From assembly GCA_963722385.1 (NCBI GenBank), contig CAVRKK010000002.1, positions 288,001-352,000 on the forward strand: DNA of 64,000 nucleotides, in the 5' to 3' direction. The stretch comes from an uncultured bacterium. Lineage in GTDB: Bacteria > Babelota > Babeliae > Babelales > Babelaceae. Of the stretch, positions 26,192-64,000 are shown in pieces. The translations under genes were made by a program, and so were the position numbers. The notes beneath the pieces were generated by a model. It saw only the letters and a program-made list of their open reading frames with translations. It was not told the origin of the DNA and made no database searches. The number at the start of each line of letters is the position of its first letter. Position 1 is the stretch's first letter.

Positions 26192-29100
26192 ATGTTTATT
26201 AAGGCTTTCATACGGCATGCTCTTGTCTCTATTTTTTCTCTATTAGCAATAATATTTTGTCGAGCAAGCACGGAGCCCCGGGAGGGCTACCACGTAATTA
26301 TTACGCGTGACGAACCGGCATCCCGCCACATACCTAAGCTGCGCGGCCAAGAGAGCCCAGAAAAAGCAACACACTGCAAGATCATGAAGAATGGTGAGCA
26401 GATTGCGCAGGCTGATGTTGTACATGAGGTGCGCGGTAAGTTCAAACAAACGGAAATGGCGAAGCCTTTTTCGCTCATAGACGCTCGTAATTTGCAGATA
26501 CGCTTTCAGGAAGGTGATAACTGTTTTCATTTGTCGGTGGATCTCAAAGGCGATATCGCGATTCACCAACTTGAGATGGCTGATTCATTTTCGCTTGAGG
26601 TATCTGGCAGTAGCAGCATTACCAACCAGACGCCGATTTCGCTTAAGAAAGACTTAGCGATTACTATGCCTCGAGGTGTTTTTTGGAGCGGCAGTAAGGC
26701 CCACTGGCATGTTGGCGGCCAAGCTGACCTATCGTTTGAAGAGGGAGCGGTGGCGATTTGGGGAAGCTTTGATTCAACGGGTGATCTACGTATCAAAGCA
26801 AACCGCTATACACAGCCCTATGGCAAAGCGCAAAGAACTGAGGGTAACCGATACCGTGCTACCAATAGTAACGGATATCCCTGGACATGTGTTGAGTATG
26901 ATATGGTATCGCCAAAACGCTCATTGGTGAGGTCGCAGGGGAATATCTCCCTTACTGCCAATCATGTTGGTATTTACGGCGGTATTCTGCATGCAAAAGA
27001 AAATATTATTGCTGATATTGACCAAAAGTTTGAGCTTCTAACGCAGTGTAATGATCATAAGCGTTGTGAGACCTATAAAGAAGATACTGGCTGGATCTTC
27101 AAAAACATGGTTACCCGAGCAGTGGCTGATTACTTTGAAAGCTGCGACGATGTAGCAATCCTGCAAGCGGGCAAAGATTTCAAGCTCATGCTTCAGGGCC
27201 AGCCGGTGAAGATACATGATATCAAGCACTATCCGGCATTTGAAAGCACAGGCCAGATTGTTATTGGGCAAGAGGCTCATGTCTCATCATCAAACAAGCA
27301 AGGGGTTATGCATAATCATAAGTCCGACGTAGATGATCTGAGATCTTATGGCCCAATTTCTCTCTCATTTGCTCAGTTTATCGATCCCACCACTACCATT
27401 CTCTGTAATGACCCGCGCTTTATCTTTACCCATCCTTCACAAAAAGAGAGCACAGAAGAATGGCAGCCTGGCAATGAGCTTGCATTTTTTCATGGCACAA
27501 CTTTGAACAAACCAGCTATGCTTCTCTCTTTTAGTTCTCAGGTAGAGATACTCTCTCGGCTTTTATTTGAGCTCGGCCTTCCCGCACTTGGGGGCGAAGG
27601 TGACTTTGCTACCCAACTCCGGGAGCTCCAACGTGCTGGCTATCTCGTAGCCCTTGTCAATGGTAGGAAAATAGGAAACATGAAGAAAAGGGAGCCGCTA
27701 CCACGGGGACACAATAAACCGCGAAAGTCGTTGAAAGATCAGCCGCAAGAAACCAAGGTCGAATTGGCTGAGGAAGAAAAGCAAGAGCTCGCCAGACTTC
27801 TCAAGCGCTACAGCCATAAAATTAATGGTTATCCTTCATGGCTCAAAAGCAAAATGACGGACGTACAAGAAGGCCAAAATCTTGGAATACTCACGCAAGA
27901 GCTTATACATGAGTTGCCATTTTCATTTATCTATTACCAGGTTCAAAAATTCGATGGTGTTGATTGTTTAGTCCCTGTCCTTCATGTGTGTGCAGCAGAC
28001 CGTGATGCCAATAAGCGTATGGGCTCTTTTCTTGCTCATGATGTTACTATTGATAAGATGCATCGAGTCGTCAACAAGGGCATGATTCGTGCCATTAATC
28101 GTGTAAAGATACAAGCAGATACGATTATTAACAAAGCCAATAAGGTAAAAAAATACTCCGTGCGCACGCCGTTAGAAGGCGGTGATATTATTGGCTTTGA
28201 TATCGAGCTTGAAGTTCCCCAAGATGCCGTTGGTAAAGCGGGTATTAAGAACATTGGTGGCTCTATTGTGGGCAAGCAGAAAGTATCGCTCTATGCCAAG
28301 CAGGGAGACATCACCAACACGGTTCTTTTGGGAAGCCATACCGTAACGTGGGACCCTGGCTTTTTTGGCAGGCTCTTTGGCCATCAAAGCTCTTCGGAAA
28401 TAGTAGATTTTTATCCAGGAAACATTACTTCTGAGGGCAATATTGAGCTTATAAGCGAGACGGGCAAGCTGTTTAATGAGGGATCGAAAATTATTGGCGC
28501 TCAGAATGTCCAGTTGAAAGCATACGGTGATGCCGTCTTTAAAACACTTACCAACAAGCATACATCATATAGCGGTACATCGCTGCAGGGCTTTTCGGTT
28601 AAGCAAGTGGTCAAAGAGGCGATGACTATGGAGCGCTCAGAGATAGGTGCTGGAAAGAATCTTACGGTAGAGTCTACCAATGGTTCAATCAAAAGCTATG
28701 GTGCTTCTTTTACTGCCATCCGTGATGCCTTGTTTAAGGCAAAAAAGAGTAATGATCTTGCCGTAGTGACCACAACGCTTAAAGGCGAGCAGAAGCAGCT
28801 GGGGCTTGATTTGTTTGGGCTCTATGCTACCAGCAAAAAGCATCTGCAGGACCATATAATCAAAACTGAGATTAATGTTGGTGGCAAGGTGACCTTTGAG
28901 TCGGGCGAGGACAATGTGCTTGAGGCAGTGGCTGTTTATGCAGGTCAGCCTATTCACTTGATTGCCAAGCGCAATAATGTTATCAAAGGAGCCAAACAGC
29001 ATTCATCATCAACGACTGATAGCTGGTCCTTCGGCATGACCTTTTTTGGCTCAGATGCTCTCGGTTTGCTTGCTGATGAAGAATATGGCAAGGCGTTGTG

Positions 29101-32056: not shown

Positions 32057-32860
32057 ATGGACATGAGAAAAAGTCTTAGAATCACAGGCCTGTCTCTAAT
32101 ACTCGCTCTGGGTAGCTGGCAAGCGACCGGGATGGAAGCTCCTGGGCATGAATCAAGCAGCGATGAGGAAATAAGTGCAAAAGAATACTCCCCGGAGGAA
32201 GCGGAACAGGGCAAAAAGCTTACCCAAGCGATCCATTATGAAGATATGGATCTCATTTATGCCTTAATTGACGCAACACCAGCTATCATTAACTATCAAG
32301 ACCCAGAAACGGGCAATACACCACTTTTAGAAGCAGTGGAAGTCTCTAGCCGTCCAATAATTAAGCTTCTCCTTCAAAAAGGTGCGGACCCCGCGATAAA
32401 AAATGCTCAAGGCTTTCCGCCAATTTTCGTTATTCTTCAGAAATGGAATGAACGCGAAGGGCTTTTAAGACTGCTGATTTCTTACAATATCCAGGCTCGT
32501 GATGCTCATGGTCCCAATGGTCAAACGGCATTGCAATATGCTGTTGAGCGTGATTTACCCGAAAAAAGAGTCCTTTTGAGTTTATGGGCTGATATTAATG
32601 CGCAAGATAACAGAGGTTGGACTGCTTTGCATTATGCTGTAGGGCAAGGAAATAGTATAGCAGTAAGATTTTTGCTTGAACAGGGAGCGAATCCGAGTAT
32701 TCGAAGCTTTGATATCGACGGCAACCGTACTGCTGAAATGGTTATTAATCCTAAAACAGTAGGAAGGAGAGCGCCAGATATTATAGAAGCTATCCAAAAA
32801 GCTCAATTAAACTATGAAAAAGGATGGTTTAGCAGCCTTAAAAATTTTATCGGTCTGTAA
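32057..32860 (+). CDS. Secreted ankyrin-repeat protein, family 1 copy 1
   Basis: Signal peptide ending ATG-ME; GNTPLLEAV, GQTALQYAV, GWTALHYAV repeats. Confidence 0.9.
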   Translation: MDMRKSLRITGLSLILALGSWQATGMEAPGHESSSDEEISAKEYSPEEAEQGKKLTQAIHYEDMDLIYALIDATPAIINYQDPETGNTPLLEAVEVSSRPIIKLLLQKGADPAIKNAQGFPPIFVILQKWNEREGLLRLLISYNIQARDAHGPNGQTALQYAVERDLPEKRVLLSLWADINAQDNRGWTALHYAVGQGNSIAVRFLLEQGANPSIRSFDIDGNRTAEMVINPKTVGRRAPDIIEAIQKAQLNYEKGWFSSLKNFIGL

Positions 32861-32884: not shown

Positions 32885-32911
32885 AAGCCAGCACAGAAAT
32901 GCTGGCTTTTT
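32885..32911 (+). terminator. Intrinsic terminator
   Basis: AAGCCAGCA/TGCTGGCTT stem plus T run; stem conserved at 60783 with a different loop. Confidence 0.75.
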
Positions 32912-32983: not shown

Positions 32984-33344
32984 ATGAAGCGGCTAAACGT
33001 AATTTGCGTTTCAGCTTTCTTATGTTGCAGTTTACTGGTTGCGCTAGCATGTGCCCAAGAAGCTGAGACTCCGGAAGAGCTATCGGCTAGGAAGGCTCAT
33101 CTAGAAGAGGAACAAGGACAACTTGAGCAAAAATTACTTTTAGCTCAACAAGAAAACAATCCAGAAGAAATTTCAGCAATTGAAAGCCAGCAAAAGCAGG
33201 TTGCTCAACAGCTTAAAGAAGTCTCTCAAGAAGAATCACAAGCCATTCCTATTATCTCACCGCCCATGCCGTCTAATCAAGTGCCAATTGTAGTCACAAA
33301 AGCTGGTAGTGAACAAGATGTTCTCCAAGCATCAGATATAACAA
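32984..33344 (+). pseudogene. 5' fragment of a giant secreted helical protein, truncated by IS630
   Basis: Colinear with the first ~120 codons of the ORF at 60882; similarity stops at the IS left end. Confidence 0.85.
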
Positions 33345-34467
33345 TAGACATCACATTTAGGTTTTAGACTTAAAGCCCAGCAAACTGTACTCAAAGAAAG
33401 TGTTATTTAAAAATTCAGCAAAATCATTTGATATTTGCTTGATATTATCGATGAAACGATTATGTGAAACATTTTTGCGAGCAGCTTTCCAAACCTTTTC
33501 TTGCGGGTTTTCTTCAGGAGCATATGCTGGAAAGTAGATTAAATCGATGTTTTTATCTTCTTTTAAAAATTCCTGGACGGCTGACCCTCGATGCCATCCT
33601 GCATTATCCCAAATCAAAAGCAATCTGCTTTTCGGATAGTTACGTCTAAGCTGTTTTAACACATCTACCGTAATATACATGTTTTGTTTTTCTGCGATGA
33701 AAGCATGTTCTCGGCCTGTTTTTATGTTTAAAAACCCATAAAATGACCGATTTTCTCGTTTGCTTGTAACCTCAATTTTAGGGTACTCGCCGGCAGGCAA
33801 CCAAATTTTTTGGAATGTTGTTGTTGATGAAAGAATCATTTCGTCAGCAGCGAATATCTCGATCTGATCATTATTCCAAGCTTTTTTAATTACAGGCATT
33901 ACATCTTCTTTCCATTTCTGAACCTTCTGTTCATCGCGTTTCTGATAAACCTTGCCAGGCTTGTGAAATGTAAAACGCGCTTCTTTAAAAACAAGATACA
34001 ATGAGGTTTTTGATTTATATTTTACACCATATTGCTCGCGAATAAGATGTCCTAATGACCAAGTCGTCCAGTAATCCTCATCAAATCCGTAATCCCGAGT
34101 ATTATTTTTGAGCGTCTCTAAAATTTGTGTTCGCTGGCCTTTAGTCAGCAGTGATCGAATCTTTTTTTTACGTTTGTCCCTAATCCCGTCGATTCCTTTC
34201 TGCAGAAAATTGTTTCGCAATGTAAATATTGAACTTCTTTTAAACCCAGTTAGCTCTTCAATAATTCCTAAATCGAGTCTTCTATTAAGCATTAAAATCG
34301 CTTGGGTACGCAGCGATTCTTTCGTGTTTGTTTCTTTGTTTTTTAAAAATGCTTTAAGATCTTCAATTTGTGCTTGGGTTAAAACAATCTGTCTTGGCAT
34401 TTTAAAACACTCCCTTTTTGCCAAAACAGTTTACCGTTTTTAGTCTATTTTTAAAGTGTGATGTCTA
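33345..34467 (-). mobile_element. IS630-family insertion sequence
   Basis: Imperfect terminal inverted repeats TAGACATCACA..TAGACT (33345) and AGTCTA..TGTGATGTCTA (to 34467), TA at both ends; single transposase ORF. Confidence 0.92.
33357..34424 (-). CDS. IS630 family transposase
   Basis: HTH/winged-helix N terminus (WT...L...I...YGVKY); DDE motifs FAADE, IWDNAGWH, FPAYAPEENPQEKVW. Confidence 0.95.
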   Translation of the reverse strand: MAKRECFKMPRQIVLTQAQIEDLKAFLKNKETNTKESLRTQAILMLNRRLDLGIIEELTGFKRSSIFTLRNNFLQKGIDGIRDKRKKKIRSLLTKGQRTQILETLKNNTRDYGFDEDYWTTWSLGHLIREQYGVKYKSKTSLYLVFKEARFTFHKPGKVYQKRDEQKVQKWKEDVMPVIKKAWNNDQIEIFAADEMILSSTTTFQKIWLPAGEYPKIEVTSKRENRSFYGFLNIKTGREHAFIAEKQNMYITVDVLKQLRRNYPKSRLLLIWDNAGWHRGSAVQEFLKEDKNIDLIYFPAYAPEENPQEKVWKAARKNVSHNRFIDNIKQISNDFAEFLNNTFFEYSLLGFKSKT

Positions 34468-34854
34468 TATGTTTATTGCTTTATTGCTTATGCCCTGTTT
34501 GCGCATGCTTGCTTTACCCTTTTATTACCTTACTGCTTTATCGTGTTGCAGTCTTATTCTTTTATATGTTTTTAGCTTAAATTAAGAACAATATTCAATA
34601 GGATAAATCAAAACTCATATCCCTTCTACCAAGCATGCTCCTAGCACGTTAGCTTGGTACCAGCTATCCGTGTATGCTTATAACTTTGCCGCAATTGATC
34701 TTAACGAGAATATTTTTAACCTTTGACAAAAAGGATATATCTCAAGCTTAAGCAGTTTATTGATATCTTGCAATTGTCGATGCCACTCAAGAGCAGGTTC
34801 GAAAAGCTAAAAAAATGATATATTAATTATTGTAGTGCAAATGATAGAAGCCAG

Positions 34855-35682
34855 GTGAACCAGATGAGTAGATCCTTTAACATTAAATTTGAGGTAATGC
34901 ACCCCTTAACAGAACAAGGTGCGGTAAACATGCTATGGAAGGCATGGCAAATAGGTGGCATGTTCAAATACGGATTTGGCACCTTCGATAACATGCTAGT
35001 TTCTTGGCTAAAAAATCGCTCGGTCGAACTTGGCTGGCATGAAGAGGATGCTGAAGACCCCGATGCTTATTCTCCTTATGTAATAATATCTATGTACGAA
35101 AGAGATGAATCAAGTTTTGAATTTTACTTCGAGCCAAGTGGTGCTAACCGCTGGGGCCGAGGACGCACATCCATGGGCATAGACTTTTCATGGTATATTG
35201 AAAAAGGGCTCATTATTACTGAGGGACTTGAAATAGCTAGTTTACTAGCCCAAGTAGAGGATTATTACTTCAAGGAACCTGCTCAAGAATGGCAAATAGA
35301 CGTAAGATTACGTGGTCTATATTGGCCATTTGGGCCACCCTTTTTTAAAAAGCCAAATGAATTATTAGAAAAAGATTGGCAACATTTAAGAGATACGCTC
35401 GATAGATTTATAGCAAATGGCTTGTTGGCAGGGTGCATATTTGAACCTTATGTACTTGATGAAACCACTGTGTCAAAAGAATTTATTACCTTACGTGGAA
35501 AAACGGCCTGGGGTGAAGATATTTTAGTTAAAATGCAACGGGGGGGGCTTTGGCTCATGCCAGCTGATCCTGCCTATAGACCCGCCAATATACGTCCTTA
35601 CTTAGAACTGCTCAACAGTTTATTGAAAGGCTTTGAAATTAACGCACTACAGGCAGATAGTCTCGCACTCAAAAAACAATAA
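34855..35682 (+). CDS. Hypothetical cytoplasmic protein, possible immunity protein, copy 1
   Basis: 275-aa ORF without signal peptide, Trp/acidic-rich, duplicated immediately upstream of a putative nuclease effector. Confidence 0.7.
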   Translation: MNQMSRSFNIKFEVMHPLTEQGAVNMLWKAWQIGGMFKYGFGTFDNMLVSWLKNRSVELGWHEEDAEDPDAYSPYVIISMYERDESSFEFYFEPSGANRWGRGRTSMGIDFSWYIEKGLIITEGLEIASLLAQVEDYYFKEPAQEWQIDVRLRGLYWPFGPPFFKKPNELLEKDWQHLRDTLDRFIANGLLAGCIFEPYVLDETTVSKEFITLRGKTAWGEDILVKMQRGGLWLMPADPAYRPANIRPYLELLNSLLKGFEINALQADSLALKKQ

Positions 35683-35924
35683 CAGAAATATTGACTTCAT
35701 ATCCCTTCTACCAAGCACGATCCTAGCACGATAGCTTGACACCAGCTATCCTCTTATAGCCAGTCGCAATCTTAACACGCATATTCTGAAACCTTTGACA
35801 AAAAAGATATCTCCACCTTAAGCAGTTTATTGGTACCTCTCAAATGTCGATGCCACTCAAAAGCAGGTTCGAAAAGTTAAAAAAATGATATATTAATTAT
35901 TGTAGTGCAAATAATAGAAGCCAG

Positions 35925-36749
35925 GTGGACCACATGAGTAGATCCTTTAACATTAAATTTGAGATAATGCACCCCTTAACAGAACAAGGTGCGGTAAACA
36001 TGCTATGGAAGGCGTGGCAAATAGGTGGCATGTTCAAATACGGATTCGGCACCTTCGATAACATGTTGGTTTCTTGGCTAAAAGATCGCTCGGTCGTACT
36101 TGGCTGGTATGAAGAAGATCCCGAAGATCCCGATAATTCTTATCCATATGTCGAAGTAGCTATGAATAAAATAAATGATACAAGTTTTGAATTCTACTTC
36201 CAGCCAAGTAATGCTAACCGCCGGGGCCGAGGACGCACATCCATGGGGATAGATTTTTCATGGTATATTGAAAAAGGGCTTATTATTACTGAGGGACTTA
36301 AAATAGCGAGTTTACTAGCCCAAGTAGAGGATTATTATTTCAAGGAACCTGCTCAAGAATGGCAAGTATTCGTAGTATTAAGAAACCTATATTGGCCATT
36401 TGGGCCACCCTTTTTTGAAAAGCCAAATGAATTATTAGAAAAAGATTGGCAAGATTTGAGAGATACGCTCGATAGATTTATAGCAAATGGTATGTCATCA
36501 GGGTGCGTATTTGAACCTTACCTACTTGATGAGGCCACCGTTTCAAAAGAATTTCTTACCTTAAGAGGGAAAACAGCCTGGGGTGAGGATATTTTAGTTA
36601 AGACGCAACGCTCGGAACTTTGGCTCATGCCAGCTGATCCTGCCTATAGACCCGCCAATATACGTCCTTACTTAGAGCTGCTCAACAGTTTATTGAAAGG
36701 CTTTGAAATTAACGCATTGCAGGCAGATAGTCTTGCCCTCAGAAAATAA
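35925..36749 (+). CDS. Hypothetical cytoplasmic protein, possible immunity protein, copy 2
   Basis: Close paralog of 34855-35682 with clustered substitutions. Confidence 0.7.
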   Translation: MDHMSRSFNIKFEIMHPLTEQGAVNMLWKAWQIGGMFKYGFGTFDNMLVSWLKDRSVVLGWYEEDPEDPDNSYPYVEVAMNKINDTSFEFYFQPSNANRRGRGRTSMGIDFSWYIEKGLIITEGLKIASLLAQVEDYYFKEPAQEWQVFVVLRNLYWPFGPPFFEKPNELLEKDWQDLRDTLDRFIANGMSSGCVFEPYLLDEATVSKEFLTLRGKTAWGEDILVKTQRSELWLMPADPAYRPANIRPYLELLNSLLKGFEINALQADSLALRK

Positions 36750-36849: not shown

Positions 36850-39800
36850 ATGAGTATAGCATCTTTCTTCACCCATCATAAAATCGCAATTAGAATAACT
36901 TTATCAAGTTTTTTTCTTTATTCTGCCTTGCCTGTGGTGGCGCAGGGGCCTGGTTTTGAAAACGAACTCGAAGTTGAGCTCGCGTATCAAACATTAGTCC
37001 GCGCAACAAAAGCTTTCAAGACTGGATCCAAAGAAGCCATCAAATCAGCATGGGAACATCCTGTCAGAACTGCTTGTGGCGTTGCTGTATCATTAGCCAT
37101 CGGTGCTTTGCCTGCGCAATGTAGCAAAGCAGTCCAGACTATCTTAGTGGGAGCATTGGTTGGCGAAATAGTTACCAATAAGCAGCTCCAAGAAGAGTTA
37201 AGCAACAAATCAATGGATGAAGGTTTTGAAATACTGGTGGCACATGGCGGCTATCTGTTGACTAACATGGCATTATACCAAACGCTTGGCACCGTGTCAT
37301 CAGTGGGCTATAGAGCATCAATTTCACGTCTTGCGCCATTTCTTAAAGATGCGATCCCTCAAGGTACCTTTACCACAAGCCCTGTAAATGGCTACACTCT
37401 TGGCGCTCAAGTCAAAAATGGCGATATCACCATTGGCGTAGCGCGCCTTATAGATGAAAAATCAATACGTGTAGTCGGCTTTCAATGGGCTAAAAGCGGC
37501 CACAAAAGGTTTTTTTCTGATAGGGTGCATAAAGCTGATTTTGCGCAAGGGAACATACAAACATCCAAGCTGCCCGTTGACCTTCCTTTCTTTAAAGCGA
37601 CTCCCGAAATTACTTCAGAGATACCCTCATCAGCCAACATTTTTCGCACCGCATTTTTCACCACCATCCCTCCCAGTAAATCTTACCCCAGTGCGTCTTC
37701 TGCTAGGGATGTAAAGCCCTCTTTTACGCCAGAGCAAAAAGAGAATTACAAAACGGTCCTAGAGATGCTGAGAGAACATGACCAAAGGCTTATCAATAAA
37801 GCTCGTCACAACTTAGCAAGAAGGCCACCGCAGCCCGATTTACGTTTCAATGGATATAGACATTATCTAGGATCTGAAGAGATTAAGCAACTAAATAAAT
37901 CAACAGTTAATGAAGCAAATATTCAATTAGCGGATGAGATATTCTCAAGTATCCCAGAAGATACTATCTTTTATGGCATCGGCGATCGTTATACGCTCCG
38001 CGAATGCATTCTAAAAAATACATTCGATCTTACCAAAATCGAGTCTTTGTTAAAAGATTTAATCACTCCTGAATATCTCATAAGCGATTCGGATAGCTCC
38101 TTAAAACGTTTGCTTACAAAGGGATTTAGCGACGACAAAGGTGCTCTAGAAAGTGCTCGTGGCGCTTATGCCGAATTCCTCGCTGACTTGGATTTTCAAG
38201 CAAAGGGCTGGGATAGGCAAGCGTTCGGGGAGCTCTACCCACAGATTCTTCAGGAAAGCGATCCCATGCCACGTAGTAGATCGGAGCTTAAAGAAAAAGA
38301 CCTCGATTTGGTTTACGAAAATATTACACCTGAAGGGGAAAAGCTAAAGCTCCTGGTTGAGGTAAAAGACAAATCCTATAATTTAAACGAACAGATTTTA
38401 GCAGATGAATTTAATAAAAACATATTGCCCAAAAAAAATATAGCGAGCATGGAAAATGCAGAGTTTTTATTTTACTCGCGGCAACCTATACCTTCATACT
38501 TAAAAAACCTTATGGATGAGCATAATATTGCGTATGCAGATACACCACAAGCCATCTTTGCACCTGAAGAATTTGCTCAATTCTATGAAGGCAAGCGCCT
38601 TGCTGAGCAGCTGAAAGATCCAACTTTTATACCAGCGCAGCAATTTCCCGCTTTTGACAATGCAGGTGGTGCTGTTCCTCCTACCCAAGAGACTTCATTT
38701 GGCTATGCTGCTCATGACGAGTCATATTCGAGCAGTGATGAACAATCAACTGGCCGCCCAAACGATGCCACAGGGAGAGCTCAAGGGTTAGCTGGCGTGG
38801 TATTTGGAGAGCTTTATCCGCAGGATACTCCTGAACATGATCAGAAAAGAGGCTCTTATCAACAAGCAACGCGTGTATCGGGCTTTACAAGCGCTCCCTA
38901 TTCCACTCACGCACGCAATCAACCATTTAATGTCATGCACCCATCAGAGGATTTATCAATAAGCTTTCACGGAGGTTTGCGTGCTACCAATGAGCATAGA
39001 GCAGTTCCTAATCGGGGAACAAGCGTTGGCTGGTATACCGGCGCTACCGCGGTTTTGGGAGCACCAGTATTGAGCTCGGCCGAAAATGTGATTGCGTACG
39101 CCATGATAGGTGGTGGTACGGTGGCAATTGTTTCTTTGATTGGTTATACGGGCTATTTAATTTTCGATACCTTGAAAAATATGGATGCGCCAAATTTTAA
39201 CGGCTATATCGAAAAAGTAATCGATAGAGAAATTGGCATGTACGCGCATTCTACGATGGATCTCTTGCGCATGAATGAGAGATACCATAATGCAATAAAA
39301 CATTGCTCAAAGTTATCATCCACTATCTTGGATAAGCCATTCTATACGGTTAATGGCTATCAAGTCCCTTTTTGGCTTTATGATCCTGACAAAAAAATTA
39401 AACTTTTTGAAACACCAGAGTTGGCTCAACTCAAACAATTGGATATACCTATCAGACTCGACGTTATTCCTACGAGCGATACGCGCACGATTCTCCGGAA
39501 TCTTAATGCAGCATTGGGTGAGCGAACCTTTGAATTAGCTCGTATGTCCCTCGGCCAAATTGCCTTAAGAATCGAAAGAGAAAAGCCCCTGTTAAAAAAA
39601 GCTCAAGATACCTGCGATGAAAAACAAAGAGACCTCGAAGCTGCACTACGAAACTTCAAAAATAAGCTCGATGCTTGTAATCGGGGTAAAGCTGATGCAA
39701 GTGATGTGGACATGATGAATCAAGTTCTTAAATTCACGTATGCAGACCTTTATCATAAAGCAGCAGCAAGGTACTATTATATAAAAACGCAGGAACTTGA

Positions 39801-41911: not shown

Positions 41912-42032
41912 CGTTCAATTTTTTATTTTAAAATCTAATTTCAGTCAAAATTCTTGCTTTTTTTAATCTATTATTTGTAAATTAGAATTATTATGCCTAA
42001 TAAAGTGGATTAAAATTGGCGAGGATGTGGCT

Positions 42033-43732: not shown

Positions 43733-43853
43733 CGTTCAATTTTTTATTTTAAAATCTAATTTTAGTCAAAATTCTTGCTTTTTTTAACTTATTATTTGTA
43801 AATTAGAATTATTACACCTAATAAAGTGGATTAAAATTGGCGAGGATTTGGCT

Positions 43854-52400: not shown

Positions 52401-54756
52401 TGACACCCTTGCAAGCACAACGATGATGGGTATTGAGGCTTTGCGCTTGTTTAATCAGTACAAGCAGAAAGAAGGAAGCACCGGCAAGTTCTTGGCCGTG
52501 CGGTTGGGTATTGCCGATGCACAAGGCTCCTTCGCGCCTGATTTATATTTCAATATTGCACATGATACCATACGCCGCGAGCAAACCATTACGGTGCCGA
52601 GCCATATTTCTGGTCAAGAAGTCCATATCGAGAGTGGCGATGATGTTCAGCTTGACGGAACAACCCTGGAGGCCGAGAAAGCGACCATTAAGGGACAGAA
52701 CTTCCAAGCAACTGCAGCACAACATACGGTCACCGTTAATCAACAATCACAAAGTGTTGGTGTAACGCTTAGTGGTACCGTTGACGCATCAAAGCAGACA
52801 AGCACTTCATATACGGTGACGCATGATAATGCGCAGATAAACGCCGATACCATTGTCATTGATGTCAAGAATGCAGAGCTCAAAGGAGCCCGGGTACAGG
52901 GCATCTCTACAACCATTAATGTTGAGCATAACCTGATGGTGGAATCAGTTGAAGATACGCACGATAGCTTTTCGAGTTCTGCTAGTGCTTATGTGGGATC
53001 AGCGGCTGGAGGCGCTCATTATGCTCAAAAAGAGACCAATGAACATAAAATTAGCCAAGCTTCAGGTATTGAGGGTACCGAGCATCTTGAGGTGCGCGTC
53101 GGCGATACGCTCGATCTCACGGGTGCTTATATAAGCAGTGAATCAACGAATGCCACCATCAAAGCTCGCCACCTTGTTTCTGAAGATATTCATGAAGGCA
53201 AAGAAACGCGCGGCTTTAGTATTGGCGGCAGCTTTATACCTAACGGTGATGACCTTGGTATCTATGGTATGGTTGATGGGCGCTATGTTTCGAAGTCGAA
53301 AGACGGTATTACACGGGCAACCATTTCTGAAAATATTGATCTTGATATTTTGGGTGCCGCGATTGCCGAGTTAAATCGCAATATGCGCATGTTGCAAGAG
53401 ACCTATGTTGAAGATGAAACCGTTCTACGCTTGGTGATACCAATCATTAATCCGTCAAAATTTGCCCAGAAGATGCAGCGTATTAAAGAGTTATTTGCTG
53501 AAGGCGGTGATAACCGCGATGCCATCAATCAAACAATGAAAGAGGCTGCAGAGGAACAACGAGAAGAGATTAAGCAGCAAGCGCAGGTTGCTGAGGAGAA
53601 GCTTCTTAATGAGTACCTTAAGCAGAAAAAGAAGCAAGAACAGCCGCTTACACCTTACGAAGCAGAGCTTGCCGAAAACATGGCATCAGGGCAGCCTGCA
53701 GAAAAAACTGAAGAACTTAAGGATGTGCTCAGGGAAAATTTTGATCAAAAATATCCTGGTACTCAGGGATATGCTGCACAACACGAAGACGAGGACTTCG
53801 AAGAGATTAATCTTGATGATCAAGCAGATGAACATACTTGGGAGCGGCCCTTTGAATCAGCCACATCAGAAGAAACAGCAGATTTCGTAGAACTAAACGA
53901 CTTGTATGACATCTATGAGTTCAACACGCAAGACGGCGATACCAGCGAAACGATCATAACAACAGATGTTACTCAAGCTGATTCACCAATCATGGTTAAT
54001 GATCAGCAATCGGCAGACGACTTAGATGCTTCTGAACAAATTTACCAAGAGCTCGAAGATATTTTTCAAGCGGAAGCGAACCAAGAAATGCTTTATGATG
54101 AATCAGCTTCATTCGTTCGGCCTTTCGTATCGACTGTGCTCGACTTCGTACCGATTGTAGGCAATGTTAAGTCTGCTGCTGAGCTTGGTCTGGGTCGGGA
54201 TTATATAAGCGGACAAGACATTGGATACGGCGAACGCGCCTTGCGCACTGCTGCTGTTATATTCCCCTATGTAAAACACTTAAAATTTGTTAGAACAATA
54301 CTGTGGCCCGTCAAATTTTTAGCAAACAAGACCGGCAGGAAACTAAAAAGTCTGAAGGATAAGGCTTCTGCTATCCTAAAGCCATTGGCAATAAATGCCG
54401 CTCGCCCGGGCTTTATTGAGCTCGGTGGAGAAGCTGGCGATATCGCAACAAAAGAAGCAGCTGAAAAAATTGCTACTGCATTTAAGGGAGCAATATTAGA
54501 AGAGGCGTGGAGCGAAAAGGGATGGAGAATCTATATCCCAAATGGTAGAAGAAGGCTTGTTGTTAGAATTATGGAAGCCGGCTCTGGCGAGCGAAAAAAA
54601 CCCTATTTTAGAATCAGTCTAGATGGCAAAGGAGCTTTAACTTCAGCTGGAAAACTTAGCACAGAGCATGTAGTAACCCACATCGATTTGACAAGTGCTT
54701 ATCTTAGCCAAATTAAAGAAATGATTTCACAATACAATATAAAGTATCAAAAATGA
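49429..54756 (+). CDS. CdiA-like polymorphic toxin B (paralog of 26192-31429)
   Basis: Colinear with toxin A over full length, ~30-aa longer acidic linker, variant C-terminal tip; ~120 bp upstream region also conserved. Confidence 0.85.
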   Translation: MFIKAFIQRALVFIFSLLAIISCRANTEPREGYHVIITRDEPASRHVTKPRGQASPEAATHCKIIKNGEQIAQTDVVHAVRDTFKPSELAQPFWLIDARNLQIRVQEGDNCFHLSVDAKGNIAIHKLEMADSFSLEVFGSGSITSQTPISLKKDLAISMPRGVFWSGAKAHWHVGGQADLSFEEGTVAIGGRFESTGDLRIKANSYKQFYGTAQRTEGNRYHAINDNGYPWTCVEYDMVSPKRSLVRSQGNISLTANHAGIYGGILHAKENIIADIDQKFELLTQCNDHKRCEIYEEDTGWIFKNMVPRAVVDYFESCDDVAILQAGKDLKLTLQGQPVKIHDIKHYPAFEATGQIVIGQEARVSSSNKQGVMYNHKPDVDDLRSYGPISLSFAQYINPATTIPCNDPRFIFTHPSQKESIEAWEPGNELAFFSGTSLSKPPMLLSFSSQVEILSRLLFELGLPALGGEGDFVTQLKELQRAGYLVALINGMGIGKMKKREPLPRGQSKPRKSLKESQETKVELSEEEKQELVALVKRYSHKINASPSYLKSKMARIQEGQDSAVLTQELIHELPFSFIYYQVQKFDGVDCLVPVLHVSAADRDANKRMGSILAHDVTIDKMHRVVNKGMIRAINRVKIQADTIINKANKVKKYSVHTLLDGGDIIGFDIELEVPQDAVGKAGIKNIGGSIVGKQKVSFYAKQGDITNTVLLGSRTVRWDPGFFGRLFGHRDSSEVVDFYPGNITSEGNIELISEAGTLLNEGSKIFGAQDVNLKAYADVVFKTLTDKHTSYSGASLQGFSVKQVVQEAMTMERSEVAAGQNLTIESTNGSIRSYGASFIAIRDALFKAKKSNDLAVVTKTLKGEQKQLGLNLFWLYATSKKHLKDHIVKTEINVGGKVTFESGEDNVLEAVVVYAGQSIHLIAKRNNIIKGAKERSSSMTDSWSFGVTFFGSDALGLLADEEYRRALWALNDEDPLIASIHRLASSASTADTLASTTMMGIEALRLFNQYKQKEGSTGKFLAVRLGIADAQGSFAPDLYFNIAHDTIRREQTITVPSHISGQEVHIESGDDVQLDGTTLEAEKATIKGQNFQATAAQHTVTVNQQSQSVGVTLSGTVDASKQTSTSYTVTHDNAQINADTIVIDVKNAELKGARVQGISTTINVEHNLMVESVEDTHDSFSSSASAYVGSAAGGAHYAQKETNEHKISQASGIEGTEHLEVRVGDTLDLTGAYISSESTNATIKARHLVSEDIHEGKETRGFSIGGSFIPNGDDLGIYGMVDGRYVSKSKDGITRATISENIDLDILGAAIAELNRNMRMLQETYVEDETVLRLVIPIINPSKFAQKMQRIKELFAEGGDNRDAINQTMKEAAEEQREEIKQQAQVAEEKLLNEYLKQKKKQEQPLTPYEAELAENMASGQPAEKTEELKDVLRENFDQKYPGTQGYAAQHEDEDFEEINLDDQADEHTWERPFESATSEETADFVELNDLYDIYEFNTQDGDTSETIITTDVTQADSPIMVNDQQSADDLDASEQIYQELEDIFQAEANQEMLYDESASFVRPFVSTVLDFVPIVGNVKSAAELGLGRDYISGQDIGYGERALRTAAVIFPYVKHLKFVRTILWPVKFLANKTGRKLKSLKDKASAILKPLAINAARPGFIELGGEAGDIATKEAAEKIATAFKGAILEEAWSEKGWRIYIPNGRRRLVVRIMEAGSGERKKPYFRISLDGKGALTSAGKLSTEHVVTHIDLTSAYLSQIKEMISQYNIKYQK

Positions 54757-55196
54757 ACAATTTAAGCTTAAGAAACGAATTAAACAAGCTCGAGGAAGGC
54801 AGAATTTTAAATCTTGCATTTGACATTCTCTATCACAGCATAAATCTTAAAGTAAAGGTATATCAATTAGAGGAAAAGTTCGAAACATTCAACGTAATTT
54901 TTTCTCATGTATCTTCTTTTTATTTTGTAAATGATATAGGAGAAGAAAGATTTAATATGTGGGAACCTGATCCAGACGATACTAAAGAGTTAACTTCAAT
55001 AGGTTACTATAAATCAGGGATTGGTAATATTAAGGTTATTGCTCATAAAGGTATCGAAGGAGAAAATTGGGCAAACTATTGGTACTCATCAGCGAATTTC
55101 GCTCTAGATCTTCTCGTAGGGGTGTTATTTATCGAAGCCAGAAGCATAACCATAAATGATAAGACATATGAAGTCGGTTATCCAACAGGTGAATGA
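54753..55196 (+). CDS. Cognate immunity protein (YxiG-like), allele 2
   Basis: ATGA overlap with toxin B; paralog of 31426-31878. Confidence 0.8.
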   Translation: MNNLSLRNELNKLEEGRILNLAFDILYHSINLKVKVYQLEEKFETFNVIFSHVSSFYFVNDIGEERFNMWEPDPDDTKELTSIGYYKSGIGNIKVIAHKGIEGENWANYWYSSANFALDLLVGVLFIEARSITINDKTYEVGYPTGE

Positions 55197-55370: not shown

Positions 55371-56198
55371 ATGGACATGAGAAAAATTCTCGGAATCATA
55401 GGTCTGTCTGTGGTGCTCGCTCTCGGTAGCTGGCAAGCGACCGCGATGGAAGCCCCTGGTCGGGAATCAAGCAGTGATGAGGAAACAAGTGCAAAAGAAT
55501 ACTCTCCCGAGGAAGCGGAACAGGGCAAAAAGCTTATCCAAGCGATCCATTATGAAGATATGGATCTCATTTATGCTTTAATTAACGCGACACCTGGTAT
55601 CATTAACTACCAAGACCCAGAAGGCAACACACCACTCTTAGAAGCAGTAGAAGGTTCTAGCCGTCCAATAATCAAGCTTCTCCTCCAAAAAGGTGCTGAT
55701 CCCTCGATTAAAAACGCTCAAGGCTTTCCACCAGTTTTCATTATTCTTAAGAAGTGGAGTGAACGTGAAGAGCTTTTAAGGTTACTGATTTCTTATAATA
55801 TACAGGCTCGTGATGCACGTGGTCCTAATGGTCAGACAGCATTGCAACATGCTGTTGAACGTGATTTGCCTGAAAAAAGAGTCCTCTTGAGTTTATGGGC
55901 AGATATTGATGCACAGGATGACAGAGGCTAAACAGCTTTGCATTATGCTGTTGATTCAGGCAATAGCATAGCGGTAGATTTTTTGCTTGAGAAAGGGGCA
56001 AATCCTCATATCAAGAGCTTTGATAGCGATGGTAATCGTACAGCTGATATGGTTATTAATCCAAGTACAGCAGGTAAGACAGCGCCTTGTATAACGCGTG
56101 CTATCCAAAGGGCTCAATTAAGCTATGGAAAGGGATGGTTTAGCGGCCTTAGAAGCTTTTTTAACCTGGAATTCACCCAAGTCTTGAGCGAATTGTAA
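55371..56198 (+). pseudogene. Secreted ankyrin-repeat protein, family 1 copy 2, with in-frame stop
   Basis: TAA at 55929-55931 replaces TGG (Trp) of the GWTALHYAV repeat found in both other copies; frame continues to 56198. Confidence 0.85.
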
Positions 56199-56289
56199 AA
56201 TTAACAAAGTATAGAAAAAAGAATAGGCTGTCTCTGATCAAAAAAAGGGGGCAGTTTTCTGGTTTTTTCGTTTTATTCAAGAGACCAGA

Positions 56290-56840
56290 AAACCCCAGGG
56301 TTTTAAACCTGGGGATGAATGGTCTACCGCATAAGGCGCGGAACGAGATGGCATTGCTCGAAGTGGAGCGCCGTCACAAGTTATGGCATACTAAGCGTAT
56401 GTATTGGAAAGGTTCACAAACGACGCATAGGCTTATGTATCACCTGGTATGGATTCCTAAATATAGAAGACGTATATTGCAAGGGAAAATAGCTGAGCGA
56501 ATTGCAGAGCTACTGCATGAATGTGCGGATATAAATCGATGGAAAATAGAAGAGCTGAATATACAAAAAGATCATGTACATGTACTTGTGCAAATGAGGC
56601 CTGAAATAAGCGTAAGCAAAATGGTGCAGCTATTCAAAGGTAGTAGCAGCAGAGTAATTCGAGAAGAATTCCCTGAATTAAAAGAATTTTTGTGGGGTAA
56701 AAGCTTTTGGGCAGATGGATATTTTGCTGAAACATCGGGTCAAGTTAGCGAAGACAAAATCAGAGAATACATTAACAATCAATAGAGCCTCAATCTCGAA
56801 GCAGAAAGCGCCGGCTTTTAAGCCGGCCGTGCTTTACTAT
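56290..56840 (+). mobile_element. IS200/IS605-family element, tnpA only (ends approximate)
   Basis: Left hairpin CCCCAGG-GTTTTAAA-CCTGGGG (56293-56314); right hairpin AAAGC-GCCGGC-TTTTAA-GCCGGC-CGT-GCTTT (56805-56835); no tnpB. Confidence 0.88.
56399..56785 (+). CDS. tnpA: IS200-type Y1 HUH transposase
   Basis: YHLVWIPKYRR, DHVH (HUH), FKG.SSR, LWG.SFWADGYF, YINNQ; start uncertain (ORF track 56315). Confidence 0.95.
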   Translation: MYWKGSQTTHRLMYHLVWIPKYRRRILQGKIAERIAELLHECADINRWKIEELNIQKDHVHVLVQMRPEISVSKMVQLFKGSSSRVIREEFPELKEFLWGKSFWADGYFAETSGQVSEDKIREYINNQ

Positions 56841-56857
56841 GTAAATCACATTGCAAA

Positions 56858-56972
56858 AGAAGATTTAATATGTGGAGCGTGAACCAGGCGATACTCAAGA
56901 ATCAACTTCTATAGGTTACTATCAATCAGCGATAGGCAGTATTAAGGTTACTGCCTATAAAGAAATCGAAGA
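56858..56972 (+). pseudogene. Degenerate internal fragment of a YxiG-like immunity gene
   Basis: AGATTTAATATGTGG...CCAGGCGATACT...ATAGGTTACTAT.AATCAG.GAT.GG.AGTATTAAGGTTACTGC aligns with ~31620-31730. Confidence 0.8.
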
Positions 56973-56980
56973 CGTCGAAT

Positions 56981-57780
56981 GAGCAAGTTTATCAAGAATT
57001 CGAAGACATTTTTCAAGCGCAGGCGAACGAAGAAATACTCAATGATGAGTCAGGTTCATTCGTTCGGCCTTTTGTCTCGGCCGTACTCGACTTTGTTCCG
57101 ATTGTCGGCAATGTTAAGTCTGCTGCTGAGCTTGGCCTTGGTCGAGATTATATAGGCGGACAGGATATTGGATATGGTGAACGGGCTTTGCACGCAGCTG
57201 CCGTTATATACCCCTATGTAAAATACCTAAAATTCGTTAGAACAATACTGTGGCCCGTCAAATTCTTGGCAAACAAGACCGGCAAGAAACTAAAAAATCT
57301 GAAAGATAAGGCTTCTGCCATCGGTCCCTCATTAGCAAATTATGCTTTGCCAGAACTCCGAGCCTGTACAGCAGCTGGGGAATTAATAAGCAAGGCATCT
57401 ACCACTCGTTTCGTAACGACCCCAGCAAAGCTCATCAAAAATGCAAGAGCAACTGCAGGTGCTGGTAGAGAGATAATCTTAGACAAAGTAAAATCTTTTG
57501 AGCAAGCTAGAAATATTGCGCTTGAAATATTGGGGAATTTGGGGCCTGATTCACTGCCTAAATTTGGGAAGCATGAGCTATTTAAAGGAAAAATTGTGGG
57601 AAGAGAACTCGCAGGTCGCAAAGCTCATTTTAGGCTTGATTGGGATCCTACGAAAGGGCCTCATATCAACGTAGGGGACTTTAGGATTGGCAAAAGAGGA
57701 ATGGCGGTGTAAACATTGCTATTCCATTCGAAGGAGACTTAAACACTGTTCTTAATTTATTAACGCATCTTAATAAATAA
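56981..57780 (+). pseudogene. Orphan toxin tip 1: PT-TG region plus a different C-terminal toxin, no start codon, frameshift near 57700
   Basis: EQVYQEFEDIFQ...LDFVPIVGNVKSAAELGLG...KDKASAI matches toxins A/B, then switches to SFEQARNIALEILGNLGPDS...GR....FRLDWDPTKGPHINV.DFR; tail NIAIPFEGDLNTVLNLLTHLNK* lies in another frame. Confidence 0.85.
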
Positions 57781-58582: not shown

Positions 58583-58632
58583 TATCATCCTTCTTTTTTA
58601 GAATTATAAACAGTTGGCTCTTGGCTTAAGTA

Positions 58633-59319
58633 GTGGGTACCGATAACCTGCTAGCAATGTATTTCTCAGATGAATCTTATCGATCTGAATTTTTGCCAAT
58701 ACTTGCGTCAATGGCACTCGATATCGTACCTGTCGTTGGTAACATTAAATCTGCGGCTGAGCTTGACCTTGGACATGATTACATAACCGAACACGACTTG
58801 AGCACGGAGGAACGAGTTTTGCTCGCTGCTTGCTTGCTTTTACCCTTGGTAAAACACCTAAAATCGGTTAAAGTAATCGCAAAGTCGATCTATCAAGCAT
58901 ACTGGTGAGTTTGCTGCCAAGCAAGCACTTAAAACTGCAAAAATCGGGGAGTTGCTGAGAGGGGCCAAACTGGCTTTATCGAGCTTGGTGGAAAAGCTCG
59001 TCATATCGCAACAAAAGAAGCTGCTCAAACGATTGCTGCTGCGTTTAAAGGAGCAACATTAATCGGGGCTAATAACAAGAAGGGATGGAAAGTCTATGTT
59101 TCAAATGGGAAAAAAGAATTTACTGTTAGAATTATGGAAGCCGGCTCTGGTGGGAGAATGGAACCTTATTTTAGGATTGGCATCAGTGGCGAATCAGCTT
59201 TAACTTCAGCCGGACAGCTTATGGCAGATCCTAAATTAACTCACTTCGATTTGACAAGTAATTATCTTATCCAAATTCAAGAAATGATTTCACAATACAA
59301 GATAAGGTATAAAAAATGA
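58633..59319 (+). pseudogene. Orphan toxin tip 2: divergent PT-TG plus third allele of the toxin A/B C-terminal domain, broken by frameshifts
   Basis: LDIVPVVGNIKSAAELDLGHDYIT...EER (58633-58908); GFIELGG...KGWKV...VRIMEAGSG.R..PYFRIG...TH.DLTS (58972-59319). Confidence 0.85.
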
Positions 59320-59777
59320 ACAATTTAAATCTAACTAATGAACTAAATAAACTTTGGGAAGGCAGAATTCTAAATCTTGAGTTTGATATCCTTCACCATA
59401 AAATTAAGTTCAAAATAAAAGTATATAGACCAGGAACAAGGGATGAACAATTTGATATCTATAACGTTGTTTTTTCTGGGGTTTCATCTTTTTACTTTTT
59501 GCAAAATACAGATGAAGATAGATTTAGGACATATGATCCAGATCCGGGAGATACAACGGAACTGACCACCATAGGTTACTATAAAGATGGTATTGGAAAA
59601 ATTAAAATCGTGACTCGTGAGGGAGATGAAGATGCTGGATGGGCAAGCCAGTGGTACTCATCGGCAAATTTTGCCCTAGAGCTCGATCCATCAGCATTAT
59701 TTATCGAAGCCAGAAGTATAACCATAAATGATAAAACCTATGAGGTAGGCTATCCCCTAGATGAAGGAGGTTTGTAA
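59316..59777 (+). CDS. Immunity protein (YxiG-like), allele 3
   Basis: ATGA overlap; more divergent paralog of 31426 and 54753 genes. Confidence 0.8.
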   Translation: MNNLNLTNELNKLWEGRILNLEFDILHHKIKFKIKVYRPGTRDEQFDIYNVVFSGVSSFYFLQNTDEDRFRTYDPDPGDTTELTTIGYYKDGIGKIKIVTREGDEDAGWASQWYSSANFALELDPSALFIEARSITINDKTYEVGYPLDEGGL

Positions 59778-59954
59778 CGTCCAATAAAACGAGCTTCTGA
59801 CTATTACATGCTTCATTTTGTTGGTATCTGACAAAAAATTTGTTATTATCAGAAATAATATCACTAGATTATTTAAAAAATTGTCAAATACTAATAAACA
59901 TGCTAGTTTGATGGATATATTTATCTTTTATTATATAAAACTGAAAGGATTATT

Positions 59955-60758
59955 ATGGACATGAGAAAAAATCTTAGAATCACAGGCCTGTATCTAGTAC
60001 TTACTCTGGGTAGCTGGCAAGCGACTGGGATGGAAGCTCCTGGTCATGAATCAAGCAGCGATGAGGAAACAAGTGCAAAAGAATACTCGCCCGAGGAAGC
60101 AGAACAGGGCAGAAAGCTTATCCAAGCGGTTAAAGATGAAGATATGGATCTCATTTATGCCTTAATTGACGCAACACCAGCTATCATTAACTACCAAGAC
60201 CCAGAAACGGGCAACACACCACTTTTAGAAGCAGTGGAAGACTCTAACCGTCCAATAATCAAGCTTCTCCTTCAAAAAGGTGCTGACCCTTTGATTAAAA
60301 ACGCTCAAGGATTTCCGCCAATTTTCATCATTCTTCAGAAGTGGAGTGAACGTGAAGAGCTTTTAAGACTGCTGATTTCTTACAATATACAAGCTCGTGA
60401 CGCTCCTGGTCCTAATGGGCAAACAGCATTGCAATATGCTGTTGAACATGATTTACCTGAAAAAAGAGTTCTTTTGAATTTATGGGCTGATATTAATGCA
60501 CAAGATGACAGAGGCTGGACAGCACTGCATTATGCTGTAGCGCAATGCGATAGCATAACGGTAGATTTTTTGCTTGAAAAAGGGGCAAATCCTAATATTA
60601 AAAGCTTCGATAGCGACGGCAACCGTACAGCTGATATGGTTATTAATTGTGCTAGAGCTGGGAGAAGGGCGCCTGATATAGTTGGTGCTGTCCAAAGAGC
60701 TCAATTAAGCTATGGAAAAGGATGGTTTAGCAGCCTTAAAAGTTTTATCGGCCTGTAA
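59955..60758 (+). CDS. Secreted ankyrin-repeat protein, family 1 copy 3
   Basis: Intact 267-aa paralog of 32057-32860. Confidence 0.9.
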   Translation: MDMRKNLRITGLYLVLTLGSWQATGMEAPGHESSSDEETSAKEYSPEEAEQGRKLIQAVKDEDMDLIYALIDATPAIINYQDPETGNTPLLEAVEDSNRPIIKLLLQKGADPLIKNAQGFPPIFIILQKWSEREELLRLLISYNIQARDAPGPNGQTALQYAVEHDLPEKRVLLNLWADINAQDDRGWTALHYAVAQCDSITVDFLLEKGANPNIKSFDSDGNRTADMVINCARAGRRAPDIVGAVQRAQLSYGKGWFSSLKSFIGL

Positions 60759-60782
60759 TTTACTCTAGGTATTAACGTCTTT

Positions 60783-60809
60783 AAGCCAGCATCTTGTGCT
60801 GGCTTTTTT
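60783..60809 (+). terminator. Intrinsic terminator
   Basis: AAGCCAGCA/TGCTGGCTT stem plus T run. Confidence 0.75.
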
Positions 60810-60881
60810 ATTTATGTTGCAATTCATGATACATATTAATTATAATTATTTTTAAATAGCAAATTAAGGCAGGAGTAAGTA

Positions 60882-63800: not shown

Positions 63801-64000
63801 ACCAAGTTGAATAGTGCCGTTAATGCCAGCTTAGCTGATCTTGCTGCTCGCTGGAAGCAAGCGATGATTGCTGGTAAAGAGACTGCCAGTAAAGTAGCAT
63901 GGTACAGCGCAATTCCCGCTGCTGTTGTTGCTTTCTTTGCCACTAAAATAACGGTACAGGCGGGAGCGCCGATAATTGGCGGAACTATAGGCAGCGCCAT
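60882..64000 (+). CDS. Giant secreted alpha-helical protein, runs off window (absent from ORF track)
   Basis: AGGAG RBS, ATG 60882, signal peptide MKQLNVICVSAFLCCSLLVRLAHA, same frame at window end; shares FAE.PG..WG.GG, RL.ALPEDMLA, ILDDQ.D.L, V.PYFEAL with 44192-48655. Confidence 0.88.
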   Translation, partial: MKQLNVICVSAFLCCSLLVRLAHAQEIETPEELSARKAHLEKEQGQLEQKLLLAQRENKPEEVLKIENQKKQIAQQLKKIDEEESRAVPVVSPTTPSNQVPIVVTKAGSEQDVLQAPDIISWQKAWEAFAEQPGRLWGKGGALFAATSPGERAQNIVEIIKKLPDNFTANQSIDALSLIAQQALDMKNKNYFTPDEANRDYGRIIKALAKKLGQVIENAHYQDQSPEQVNQLLMTILKKIKADPQFERLIQTTIVTKMVEYLKTMPLQGDSANILSSFKDIIDTYLTLSKGIVLAEIHNHAIQTALAEIIEKITEPVANLSFEQGLNTLKDIAESEKAKALSKKMPQLSHIFVITANRLLSNELSNHSLTRDISPLTQPGQTEEQKEALYLNAYVKEVDLLNKYLIFTKKNGASKTDPEFQAAARRLSRINDFMNEQKDLPETQANKQLFNNLNKAIFKVLDTLVDEGGIMGVLEHDTEFESKEEEQSKLFNRLSALPEDMLAGMDQEAKNVLEQMSKTTDQKKLKELYDNLEAIYVNLTEPLIEEKDKSYSLKDLLSESADLTNLNSLTEQIEKALGPRKEVLQKNVKRLITIRDRFNEILPELTKSDLANITAHGKELGQQKQDLEQITEHAVPEGMVPEFQRTYGQVEAWTDIIDAAEAYNALTKAPAQLTEQEKETIGQVYVTVTKAFAGIPVSLDYDQEKIFTDRLEAMKKQQEALDKLTSLVREPKATIGGKEYDLLQVADFIKKLAYHFEKLSSQQLDDLEKSGFLIHDVREGQTYYRPSDRGLYLVSIADTLNDVERRAKQLDEYQKQHASGVEPSLQMLSPTGRPIEIAEAYRLQLLILDDQVDVLQYLYRRNILENKVEEAISGVVNTTAIDNPPPLAKIDKTELLNDISDLLSVREESVNPYFEALIESEAYIESLPQKEQAEARKAAGLTTWVMRIIGLSDPEAVFSADEATITQEVKEIYTKLNSAVNASLADLAARWKQAMIAGKETASKVAWYSAIPAAVVAFFATKITVQAGAPIIGGTIGSA

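Follow-up and report, generated by a model that had tools for sequence, protein, structure and literature searches.

The toxin CdiA of contact-dependent inhibition of growth (CDI) is thought to require both the transporter CdiB and cell contact. Here, a window of 64,000 nt (the whole stretch of DNA analysed, C2:288001-352000) from an uncultured member of the Dependentiae (Babelota) was examined, in which genes for a CdiA-like toxin, its immunity protein, a secreted ankyrin protein and a very large hydrophobic protein (the giant) recur; the genome (G000) comprises 1.6 Mb and is 93% complete. As far as CDI is described, the toxin shares with the type Vb system CdiA/CdiI a signal peptide, a beta-helix, FHA-2, a pre-toxin region, a polymorphic tip, an overlapping immunity gene and orphan cassettes (PMC9086364). 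In addition, tip B is homologous to the 5T86 toxin chain, and its partner matches PF24172. Unlike CdiA, the G000 toxin of ~1750 aa has no detectable two-partner secretion (TPS) domain, no long FHA-1 stalk, no cdiB and no Tyr/Pro-rich stretch, and PT-TG takes the place of a VENN-type pre-toxin domain.

The haemagglutinin-like toxins of Rickettsiales (Ca. Jidaibacter, Tisiphia, Ac37b) with CRCT/CRCA tips are likewise described as large and polymorphic, with antidotes, in protist endosymbionts without cdiB, but belong to another phylum and to genomes with type I and IV secretion; the likeness is one of description (PMC11077975, PMC9111745). In the available parts of these accounts no ankyrin/giant pair appears, and the export of the CdiB-less toxins is left unresolved (PMC11077975, PMC9111745). 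The Sec/type II-dependent polymorphic toxins of Zhang et al. 2012 share the signal peptide as sole export mark, a lineage-specific N-terminal domain and variable tips; in Table 1 of that work, however, filamentous-haemagglutinin repeats go with TPS plus FhaB/CdiB, whereas the G000 toxin has a bare signal peptide (PMC3482391). For Dependentiae/Babelota, no report on polymorphic toxins, hemagglutinin or toxin secretion was found in the literature searched, which omits most subscription papers. With moderate confidence, we read the locus as two separate things on one amplified island, namely a TPS-less CdiA-derived antibacterial toxin and an independent secreted ankyrin/giant pair.

The toxin forms a distinct CdiA-derived clade with a signal peptide, a TpsA-type beta-helix, FHA-2, PT-TG and exchangeable tips, without a detectable TPS domain. 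In the window toxins, Pfam gave FHA-2 (PF13332) at E 9e-23 and 7e-25 and PT-TG at aa 1536-1590. For the family set, a profile of toxin aa 100-720 was searched against 1.84 billion representatives; 112 matches were obtained and 21 scanned for domains. The TPS domain (PF05860) was detected in 0/2 window toxins and 0/16 family proteins (2 of the 16 being probable fragments and 4 either sequences behind the query or tipless), and in 5/5 canonical CdiA-like proteins, which scored lower against the profile. Our own TPS profile, built from 18 canonical sequences and with 5 controls that were themselves training sequences, gave no match when run on the N-terminal parts of 18 family members, and NPNG/NPNL motifs were present in 0/17 family sequences. 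A genome-wide PF05860 scan of G000 was uninformative, as the controls were silent as well. A tree of the FHA-2 core computed with FastTree has a branch that parts 13 rows without TPS from 32 rows with it (Shimodaira-Hasegawa-like support 100); 9 probable fragments carried no label, two rows of the family were dropped as they had no anchor, 2 fragments were left out, and collecting the sequences with the family profile is a bias that favours this split. The region ahead of FHA-2, where a YP secretion-arrest domain would be expected, resembles canonical CdiA-like proteins but is not Tyr/Pro-rich. Five toxin genes with an N-terminus exist in G000, one of them frameshifted. In the relative G011, a toxin-family gene (L030:13237-18825, L031:6664-11934) terminates beyond FHA-2 and has neither a tip nor an immunity gene; 3 kb further on, an ORF (open reading frame) of more than 1756 aa without Pfam match continues past the contig end.

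No TpsB transporter for the toxin was found in G000 or in three toxin-bearing relatives (G008, G009, G011) by the genome search that the original prediction had proposed. In G000, the ShlB model matched only BamA, below cut-off, in a scan of the 93% complete genome without positive control; at E 0.001, no match was obtained in the four toxin-bearing genomes. The two Omp85 proteins of G000 are BamA and a 952-aa BamA/TamA-like protein, each with 3-5 POTRA domains and matches to BamA/TamA models; the three relatives have one Omp85 each, in a 360-aa frame in G008 and BamA-sized in G009. Across 261 phylum genomes, 25 gave partial ShlB matches, 24 of them in frames of BamA size (674-995 aa). With the TPS-less family and with immunity genes that carry no signal peptide, this supports the proposed CdiB-independent, CdiA-derived polymorphic toxin with cytoplasmic immunity. 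Type II secretion is represented in G000 by GspC, two GspD, GspL/PilM, two GspE and two GspF, the second GspE-type ATPase being N-terminally short (window 1841-2989); the duplicate GspE, GspD and GspF hint at two type II-like machines. TolC and VipB of the type VI secretion system were not found in the 93% complete genome with the queries used. In the published description of Babela, a type II system is the only secretion system reported (PMC4378268).

An AlphaFold model of toxin aa 26-900 (19 alignment rows; predicted local distance difference test, pLDDT, 84) shows a beta-helix with an antiparallel N-terminal sheet. Its best structural matches were HxuA (Z 19.2, root-mean-square deviation (rmsd) 3.1, 219 aligned), HMW1 (Z 18.9, rmsd 2.5, 256 aligned) and EtpA (Z 18.9, rmsd 2.7, 252 aligned), whereas Foldseek gave nothing at E 0.001. 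As these matches are TPS secretion domains, the model would fit a degenerate secretion domain through which BamA, present in all genomes checkable in full, or the second Omp85 exports the toxin as a CDI-like surface filament, with ankyrin and giant as bystanders. We consider such a borrowed transporter improbable: no TPS signal is found in the sequence, unrelated beta-helices stand near the top of the same ranking with many at Z 12-18, and G009 has an intact toxin alongside its single BamA-sized Omp85. On the target side, the purified C-terminal half of CdiA-EC93 (residues 1358-3132) is reported to insert into receptor-bearing (BamA) liposomes and to cleave off its own tip (PMC13625785). By analogy, the G000 toxin resembles a natural version of this self-inserting half; with the same size and domain order, it would in principle need no extra target-side translocase.

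The carrier is constant and the tips vary: tips A and B sit on ~90% identical carriers, and other family members bear Ntox35, Ntox50 or a ribonuclease. For tip B, the toxin chain of CdiA in PDB 5T86 was matched at E 6e-36; tip A has no Pfam or PDB match. By gene order in G000 and other genomes, tip B is followed by a PF24172 protein and tip A by a PF24711 protein, the latter pairing of tip A with a YxiG-like gene being present in three genomes. A single-sequence search gave no PDB match for the YxiG-like protein or the 257-aa immunity protein. Orphan tip/immunity cassettes and surplus immunity genes occur, among them a second orphan pair at 56971-58582 overlooked by the original prediction. 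G008 has a textbook orphan array (L025:6883-18460), in which an Ntox35-tip toxin is accompanied by TPR-like immunity genes, a PF24172-paired tip B and more cassettes. In other phylum genomes (L060, L111, L113-L115, L117, L119, L120, L125), a wider class of polymorphic toxins has non-haemagglutinin carriers, variable tips (restriction-endonuclease-like, tip B, others) and immunity-like genes 3'; the genomes that hold it are without giant.

G000 holds two nuclease loci. As predicted, the nuclease at 36850-40734 is followed by an ankyrin of a different family and a divergent giant paralogue (26% identity). The paralogue, given as one gene at 43854-48655, is present, but not as one reading frame; it is frameshifted near 44155 and lies within a 1.8-kb tandem duplication that also doubled the ankyrin. 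The frameshift junction was recovered on one short-read contig of run X1, which may be the source sample; the best-matching read set is a soil metagenome, possibly the source. At E 2e-13, aa 413-564 of the nuclease align with a profile built on 7 C-terminal domains of other phylum genomes, and at several loci of these domains small genes without obvious signal peptide follow. Two genes 5' of the nuclease (34855-36749), each of 275 aa and not considered before, are probable immunity genes on a weak, indirect match; their G009 orthologue matches a profile of the genes behind related nuclease tips at E 1e-5, and the window copies gave no match. Ankyrin and giant stand behind the nuclease in 1/3 loci examined.

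Ankyrin and giant form an old pairing that stands by itself and is subject to purifying selection. The specific pairing suggested earlier is supported by G009, where the two best ankyrin 1 matches lie directly 5' of the giant (E 9e-20 and 2e-13; next 3e-7), and by a C-terminal amphipathic motif found in 8/1288 ORFs, i.e. in 7 giant-type ankyrins and a chimera; the giants of G008 are without an ankyrin neighbour of this type. The chimera is a 611-aa ankyrin gene (G000 C2:811044-812879) whose last 115 aa derive from ankyrin 1, with no giant behind it. In total, G000 has five giant A genes (one a stub) and six ankyrin 1 genes plus the chimera. Only 5 giant homologues were found, 4 near-identical and one at 40%. 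In giant A, the Gly/Ala-rich hydrophobic hairpin is the most conserved part (ratio of non-synonymous to synonymous substitution rates, dN/dS, 0.07). Between copies, aa 111-350 are 63-94% and aa 351-1347 are 94-97% identical, a pattern suggestive of a variable specificity domain and of gene conversion. Among 4 copies, the ankyrin varies in step with giant aa 111-350, for which linkage alone suffices as explanation. Fold searches with the giant gave nothing specific, the matches being helical bundles of a generic kind with Z values of 9.5 at most, and no usable match was found in Atlas; the model of aa 480-1347 had a pLDDT of 57, with the hairpin region below 50. A complex prediction of giant aa 26-700 with ankyrin 1 scored 0.00, which counts neither for nor against the pairing. 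An analogy for the pair is Bdellovibrio Bd3460, a short ankyrin protein described as binding, and thereby inhibiting, weapons that the same cell exports (PMC4686830). This likeness rests on generic ankyrin repeats, and the giant has no known enzyme domain.

A terminator-like hairpin lies between ankyrin and giant at 7/7 junctions, in two unrelated sequences, and type A is followed by a promoter-like site. As counts in window 54500-61200 did not exceed those of shuffles (promoter-like 22 vs 18.5, terminator-like 6 vs 4.8), only the conservation of the hairpins across copies is given weight.

The original prediction was of a repeated four-gene module that travels with two unrelated toxins. Its ORFs, strand and order hold at 26192-33340, 49429-56198 and 58633-64000, but 0/3 in-window copies are complete, the sole intact four-gene copy lying just outside the window (C2:359866-370803). 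The first giant, described as cut by IS630, is not merely interrupted, as its remainder is missing past the element. Over most aligned blocks, the island copies are 82-97% identical in DNA; being recent duplicates, they are not independent evidence for a module. Comparison of intact copies shows purifying selection on each of the four gene types (dN/dS ~0.2). Among the aligned blocks listed, one duplicated block continues for 1.1 kb beyond the giant and reaches a beta-propeller gene on the opposite strand; a toxin-immunity pair at C2:1248607-1241950 lies without ankyrin or giant between two remnants of a broken nuclease gene. A full toxin gene is present in 4/261 phylum genomes and a giant in 3/261; of the three genomes holding both, one has the four-gene adjacency. 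In G009, toxin-immunity is separated by 30 kb with a housekeeping block from ankyrin-ankyrin-giant; in G008, one toxin locus with an orphan array has no giant and another lies 27.5 kb from the giants. These sites are non-orthologous, G000 having no such gene at the corresponding positions. Thus, ankyrin and giant stand behind toxin-immunity in 0/2 relatives having both, and the lack of linkage in relatives that the original prediction had named as telling against it is largely what was found. Scans for giant and toxin loci confirmed 0/437 and 0/596 pattern matches in metagenomes and 1/190 GTDB-wide, the latter being the G009 locus. The toxin-immunity-ankyrin-giant unit is not supported as a conserved module.

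We also regard it as doubtful that the pair is a dedicated chaperone/translocation module, a new alpha-helical export apparatus replacing CdiB that exports or delivers unrelated toxins, the nuclease included, and acts in trans where unlinked. Such a role would fit the fixed order in G000 with two different tip/immunity types, a second duplicated block that runs from behind the immunity gene to the giant stop, the conserved hairpin, and the confinement of the giant to toxin-bearing genomes at ≤30 kb from the toxin. However, adjacency is found in 0/2 relatives, and the three genomes with toxin and giant form one clade (support 98/93; GidA tree, 28/41 family genomes), so that their co-occurrence counts as one event. 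A terminator-like hairpin precedes the giant, related nuclease tips occur in phylum genomes without giant, and no longer or fused giant was found among 8000 candidates, which is weak evidence. Moreover, insertion at the target is attributed in CdiA to FHA-2 (PMC13625785).

Several observations weigh against two separate elements. All 5 giant A genes lie behind ankyrin 1, itself behind an immunity gene or remnant; ankyrin 1 lies behind the immunity array of 4/5 toxin genes with an N-terminus, and the stretch from immunity to ankyrin gave no terminator-like site. All three giant-bearing genomes among the 261 also have the toxin, and the sole giant-less toxin-like gene, that of G011 (80% complete), is the one without tip or immunity gene. 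In both relatives toxin and giant are ≤30 kb apart, and in G009 only 2.8 kb separate toxin-immunity from a remnant of giant B. The rough chance of these toxin-giant distances is ~0.002 and 0.07, which suggests an ancestral island; the distances leave the delivery module a residual probability. Gene context was read in phylum genomes, the remaining toxin-family members being compared as sequences only, and a degenerate TPS cap would still be compatible with the modelled fold.

Under the preferred reading of a toxin and a separate pair, the toxin would descend from a CdiA whose TPS domain and greater part of the FHA-1 stalk were lost once. Sec would carry it to the periplasm, from which it may exit via the general type II secretion system, vesicles or lysis. 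Its N-terminal part would bind a surface receptor of competing Gram-negative bacteria or of kin in the same protist host, FHA-2 would insert into the outer membrane of the target without help, and a tip that is probably a nuclease would be released. It would work like CDI on the target side, but we do not class it as a CDI system, since neither the transporter nor the TPS domain was found. Ankyrin and giant would be an older secreted pair that relocates independently; most likely, the giant is an effector acting on membranes, with the ankyrin as chaperone or self-protection partner. In the G000 lineage, the pair may have become fixed behind the immunity array and then been copied along with it.

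The bacterium is probably a protist parasite; its ATP/ADP translocases and ~81 ankyrin-like ORFs make an intracellular lifestyle likely. Together with two GspD secretins and a richness in signal peptides (~42% of ORFs, 543/1288, by a crude rule), they fit features published for the phylum (PMC4776705, PMC6561590, PMC4378268). Signal peptides on toxin, ankyrin and giant and their absence from immunity genes were seen as predicted, but do not discriminate here, because 543/1288 ORFs and 66/81 ankyrin-like ORFs are positive by that rule. That the whole island is directed at the protist, as an adhesin with effectors, with immunity genes guarding only against mis-sorted toxin, would suit this lifestyle, the adhesin-like tipless form of G011 and the interpretation of secreted ankyrins as host effectors in Dependentiae (PMC6561590, PMC4378268), but it is the least likely explanation, given that tip exchange, orphan cassettes and surplus immunity genes are described as hallmarks of interbacterial competition (PMC9086364) and that a tip/immunity pair is shared with an E. 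coli CDI system.

Coordinates of all features are given in Table 1, in which the predicted IS630 and IS200 elements (33340-34469; ~56270-56838) are borne out.

Table 1. Features of the window (positions in nt of the window).
Feature	Position	Strand	Remarks
Toxin 1, 1745 aa	26192..31429	+	Signal peptide, beta-helix, FHA-2 (PF13332 E 9e-23), PT-TG (PF14449 E 1e-8), tip A; TPS not detected
Putative tip A immunity protein, YxiG-like PF24711	31426..31878	+	4-bp overlap with toxin 1, no signal peptide; pairing also in G009, G008
Ankyrin type 1	32057..32860	+	Signal peptide, C-terminal amphipathic motif
Intrinsic-terminator-like hairpin, ankyrin/giant junction	32885..32908	+	Stem kept, loop variable in 5/5 copies
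Giant A stub, first 119 aa; rest absent	32984..33340	+	
IS630-type element	33340..34469	-	Transposase 33357-34424; 3 further genomic copies; junction also in run X2
Two tandem 275-aa genes, probable nuclease immunity	34855..36749	+	No signal peptide; 5' of nuclease in 3/3 loci
Nuclease: secreted 1294-aa protein, internal restriction-endonuclease-like domain aa 413-564	36850..40734	+	E 2e-13 to 7-domain profile
Ankyrin type 2, copy a	41221..41865	+	
Giant B stub	42027..42461	+	Closes first unit of 1.8-kb tandem duplication
Ankyrin type 2, copy b	42980..43687	+	Then terminator-like hairpin
Giant B, frameshifted near 44155	43848..48655 (43848-44171 plus 44192-48655)	+	26% identity with giant A
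Toxin 2, 1775 aa, tip A	49429..54756	+	
YxiG-like immunity protein	54753..55196	+	
Ankyrin type 1, interrupted by stop at 55929-55931	55371..56198	+	
IS200 element	56270..56838	+	TnpA 56315-56785
Orphan PT-TG + tip B (homologue of CdiA-CT PDB 5T86)	56971..57712	+	No start, C-terminus shortened
CdiI-type tip B immunity protein, PF24172	57809..58582	+	E 6.5e-18
Orphan PT-TG + tip A, break between the two	58633..59319	+	58453-59105 identical in run X1
YxiG-like immunity protein	59316..59777	+	
Ankyrin type 1, intact	59955..60758	+	
Terminator-like hairpin (10 pairs + T run), then promoter-like site (10/12 matches)	60783..60846	+	5' of giant A
Giant A, intact, 1347 aa	60882..64000 (gene end at 64925 in window numbering)	+	Signal peptide, coiled coil, helical bundles, Gly/Ala-rich hydrophobic hairpin aa 1005-1080

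Two further gene families were noted around the island. Secreted beta-propeller (lactonase-like) proteins of 760-1120 aa are much expanded genome-wide (e.g. window 12057-17045), and their genes often adjoin island genes in G000 and G009. L064:4584-6800 (G000 C2:356584-358800) encodes a secreted protein whose collagen-like, Thr/Ser-rich Gly-X-X repeats vary in length; such a protein also adjoins the copy of the giant at C2:846-848 kb.

What is solid is the clade of CdiA-derived toxins without a TPS domain, a variant of known CDI-type toxins. If such a clade retains in nature just the receptor-to-tip half behind a plain signal peptide, that half would be shown to work as a stand-alone weapon, and FHA-2-driven entry could be tested directly. 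It would likewise allow a test of how CdiB-less haemagglutinin toxins leave the cell in endosymbionts, an open question in Rickettsiales. The giant, an amplified ~1350-aa family without known fold under purifying selection, is of interest whatever its partner. For the phylum, a TPS-less toxin of this kind would point to interbacterial warfare in Dependentiae.

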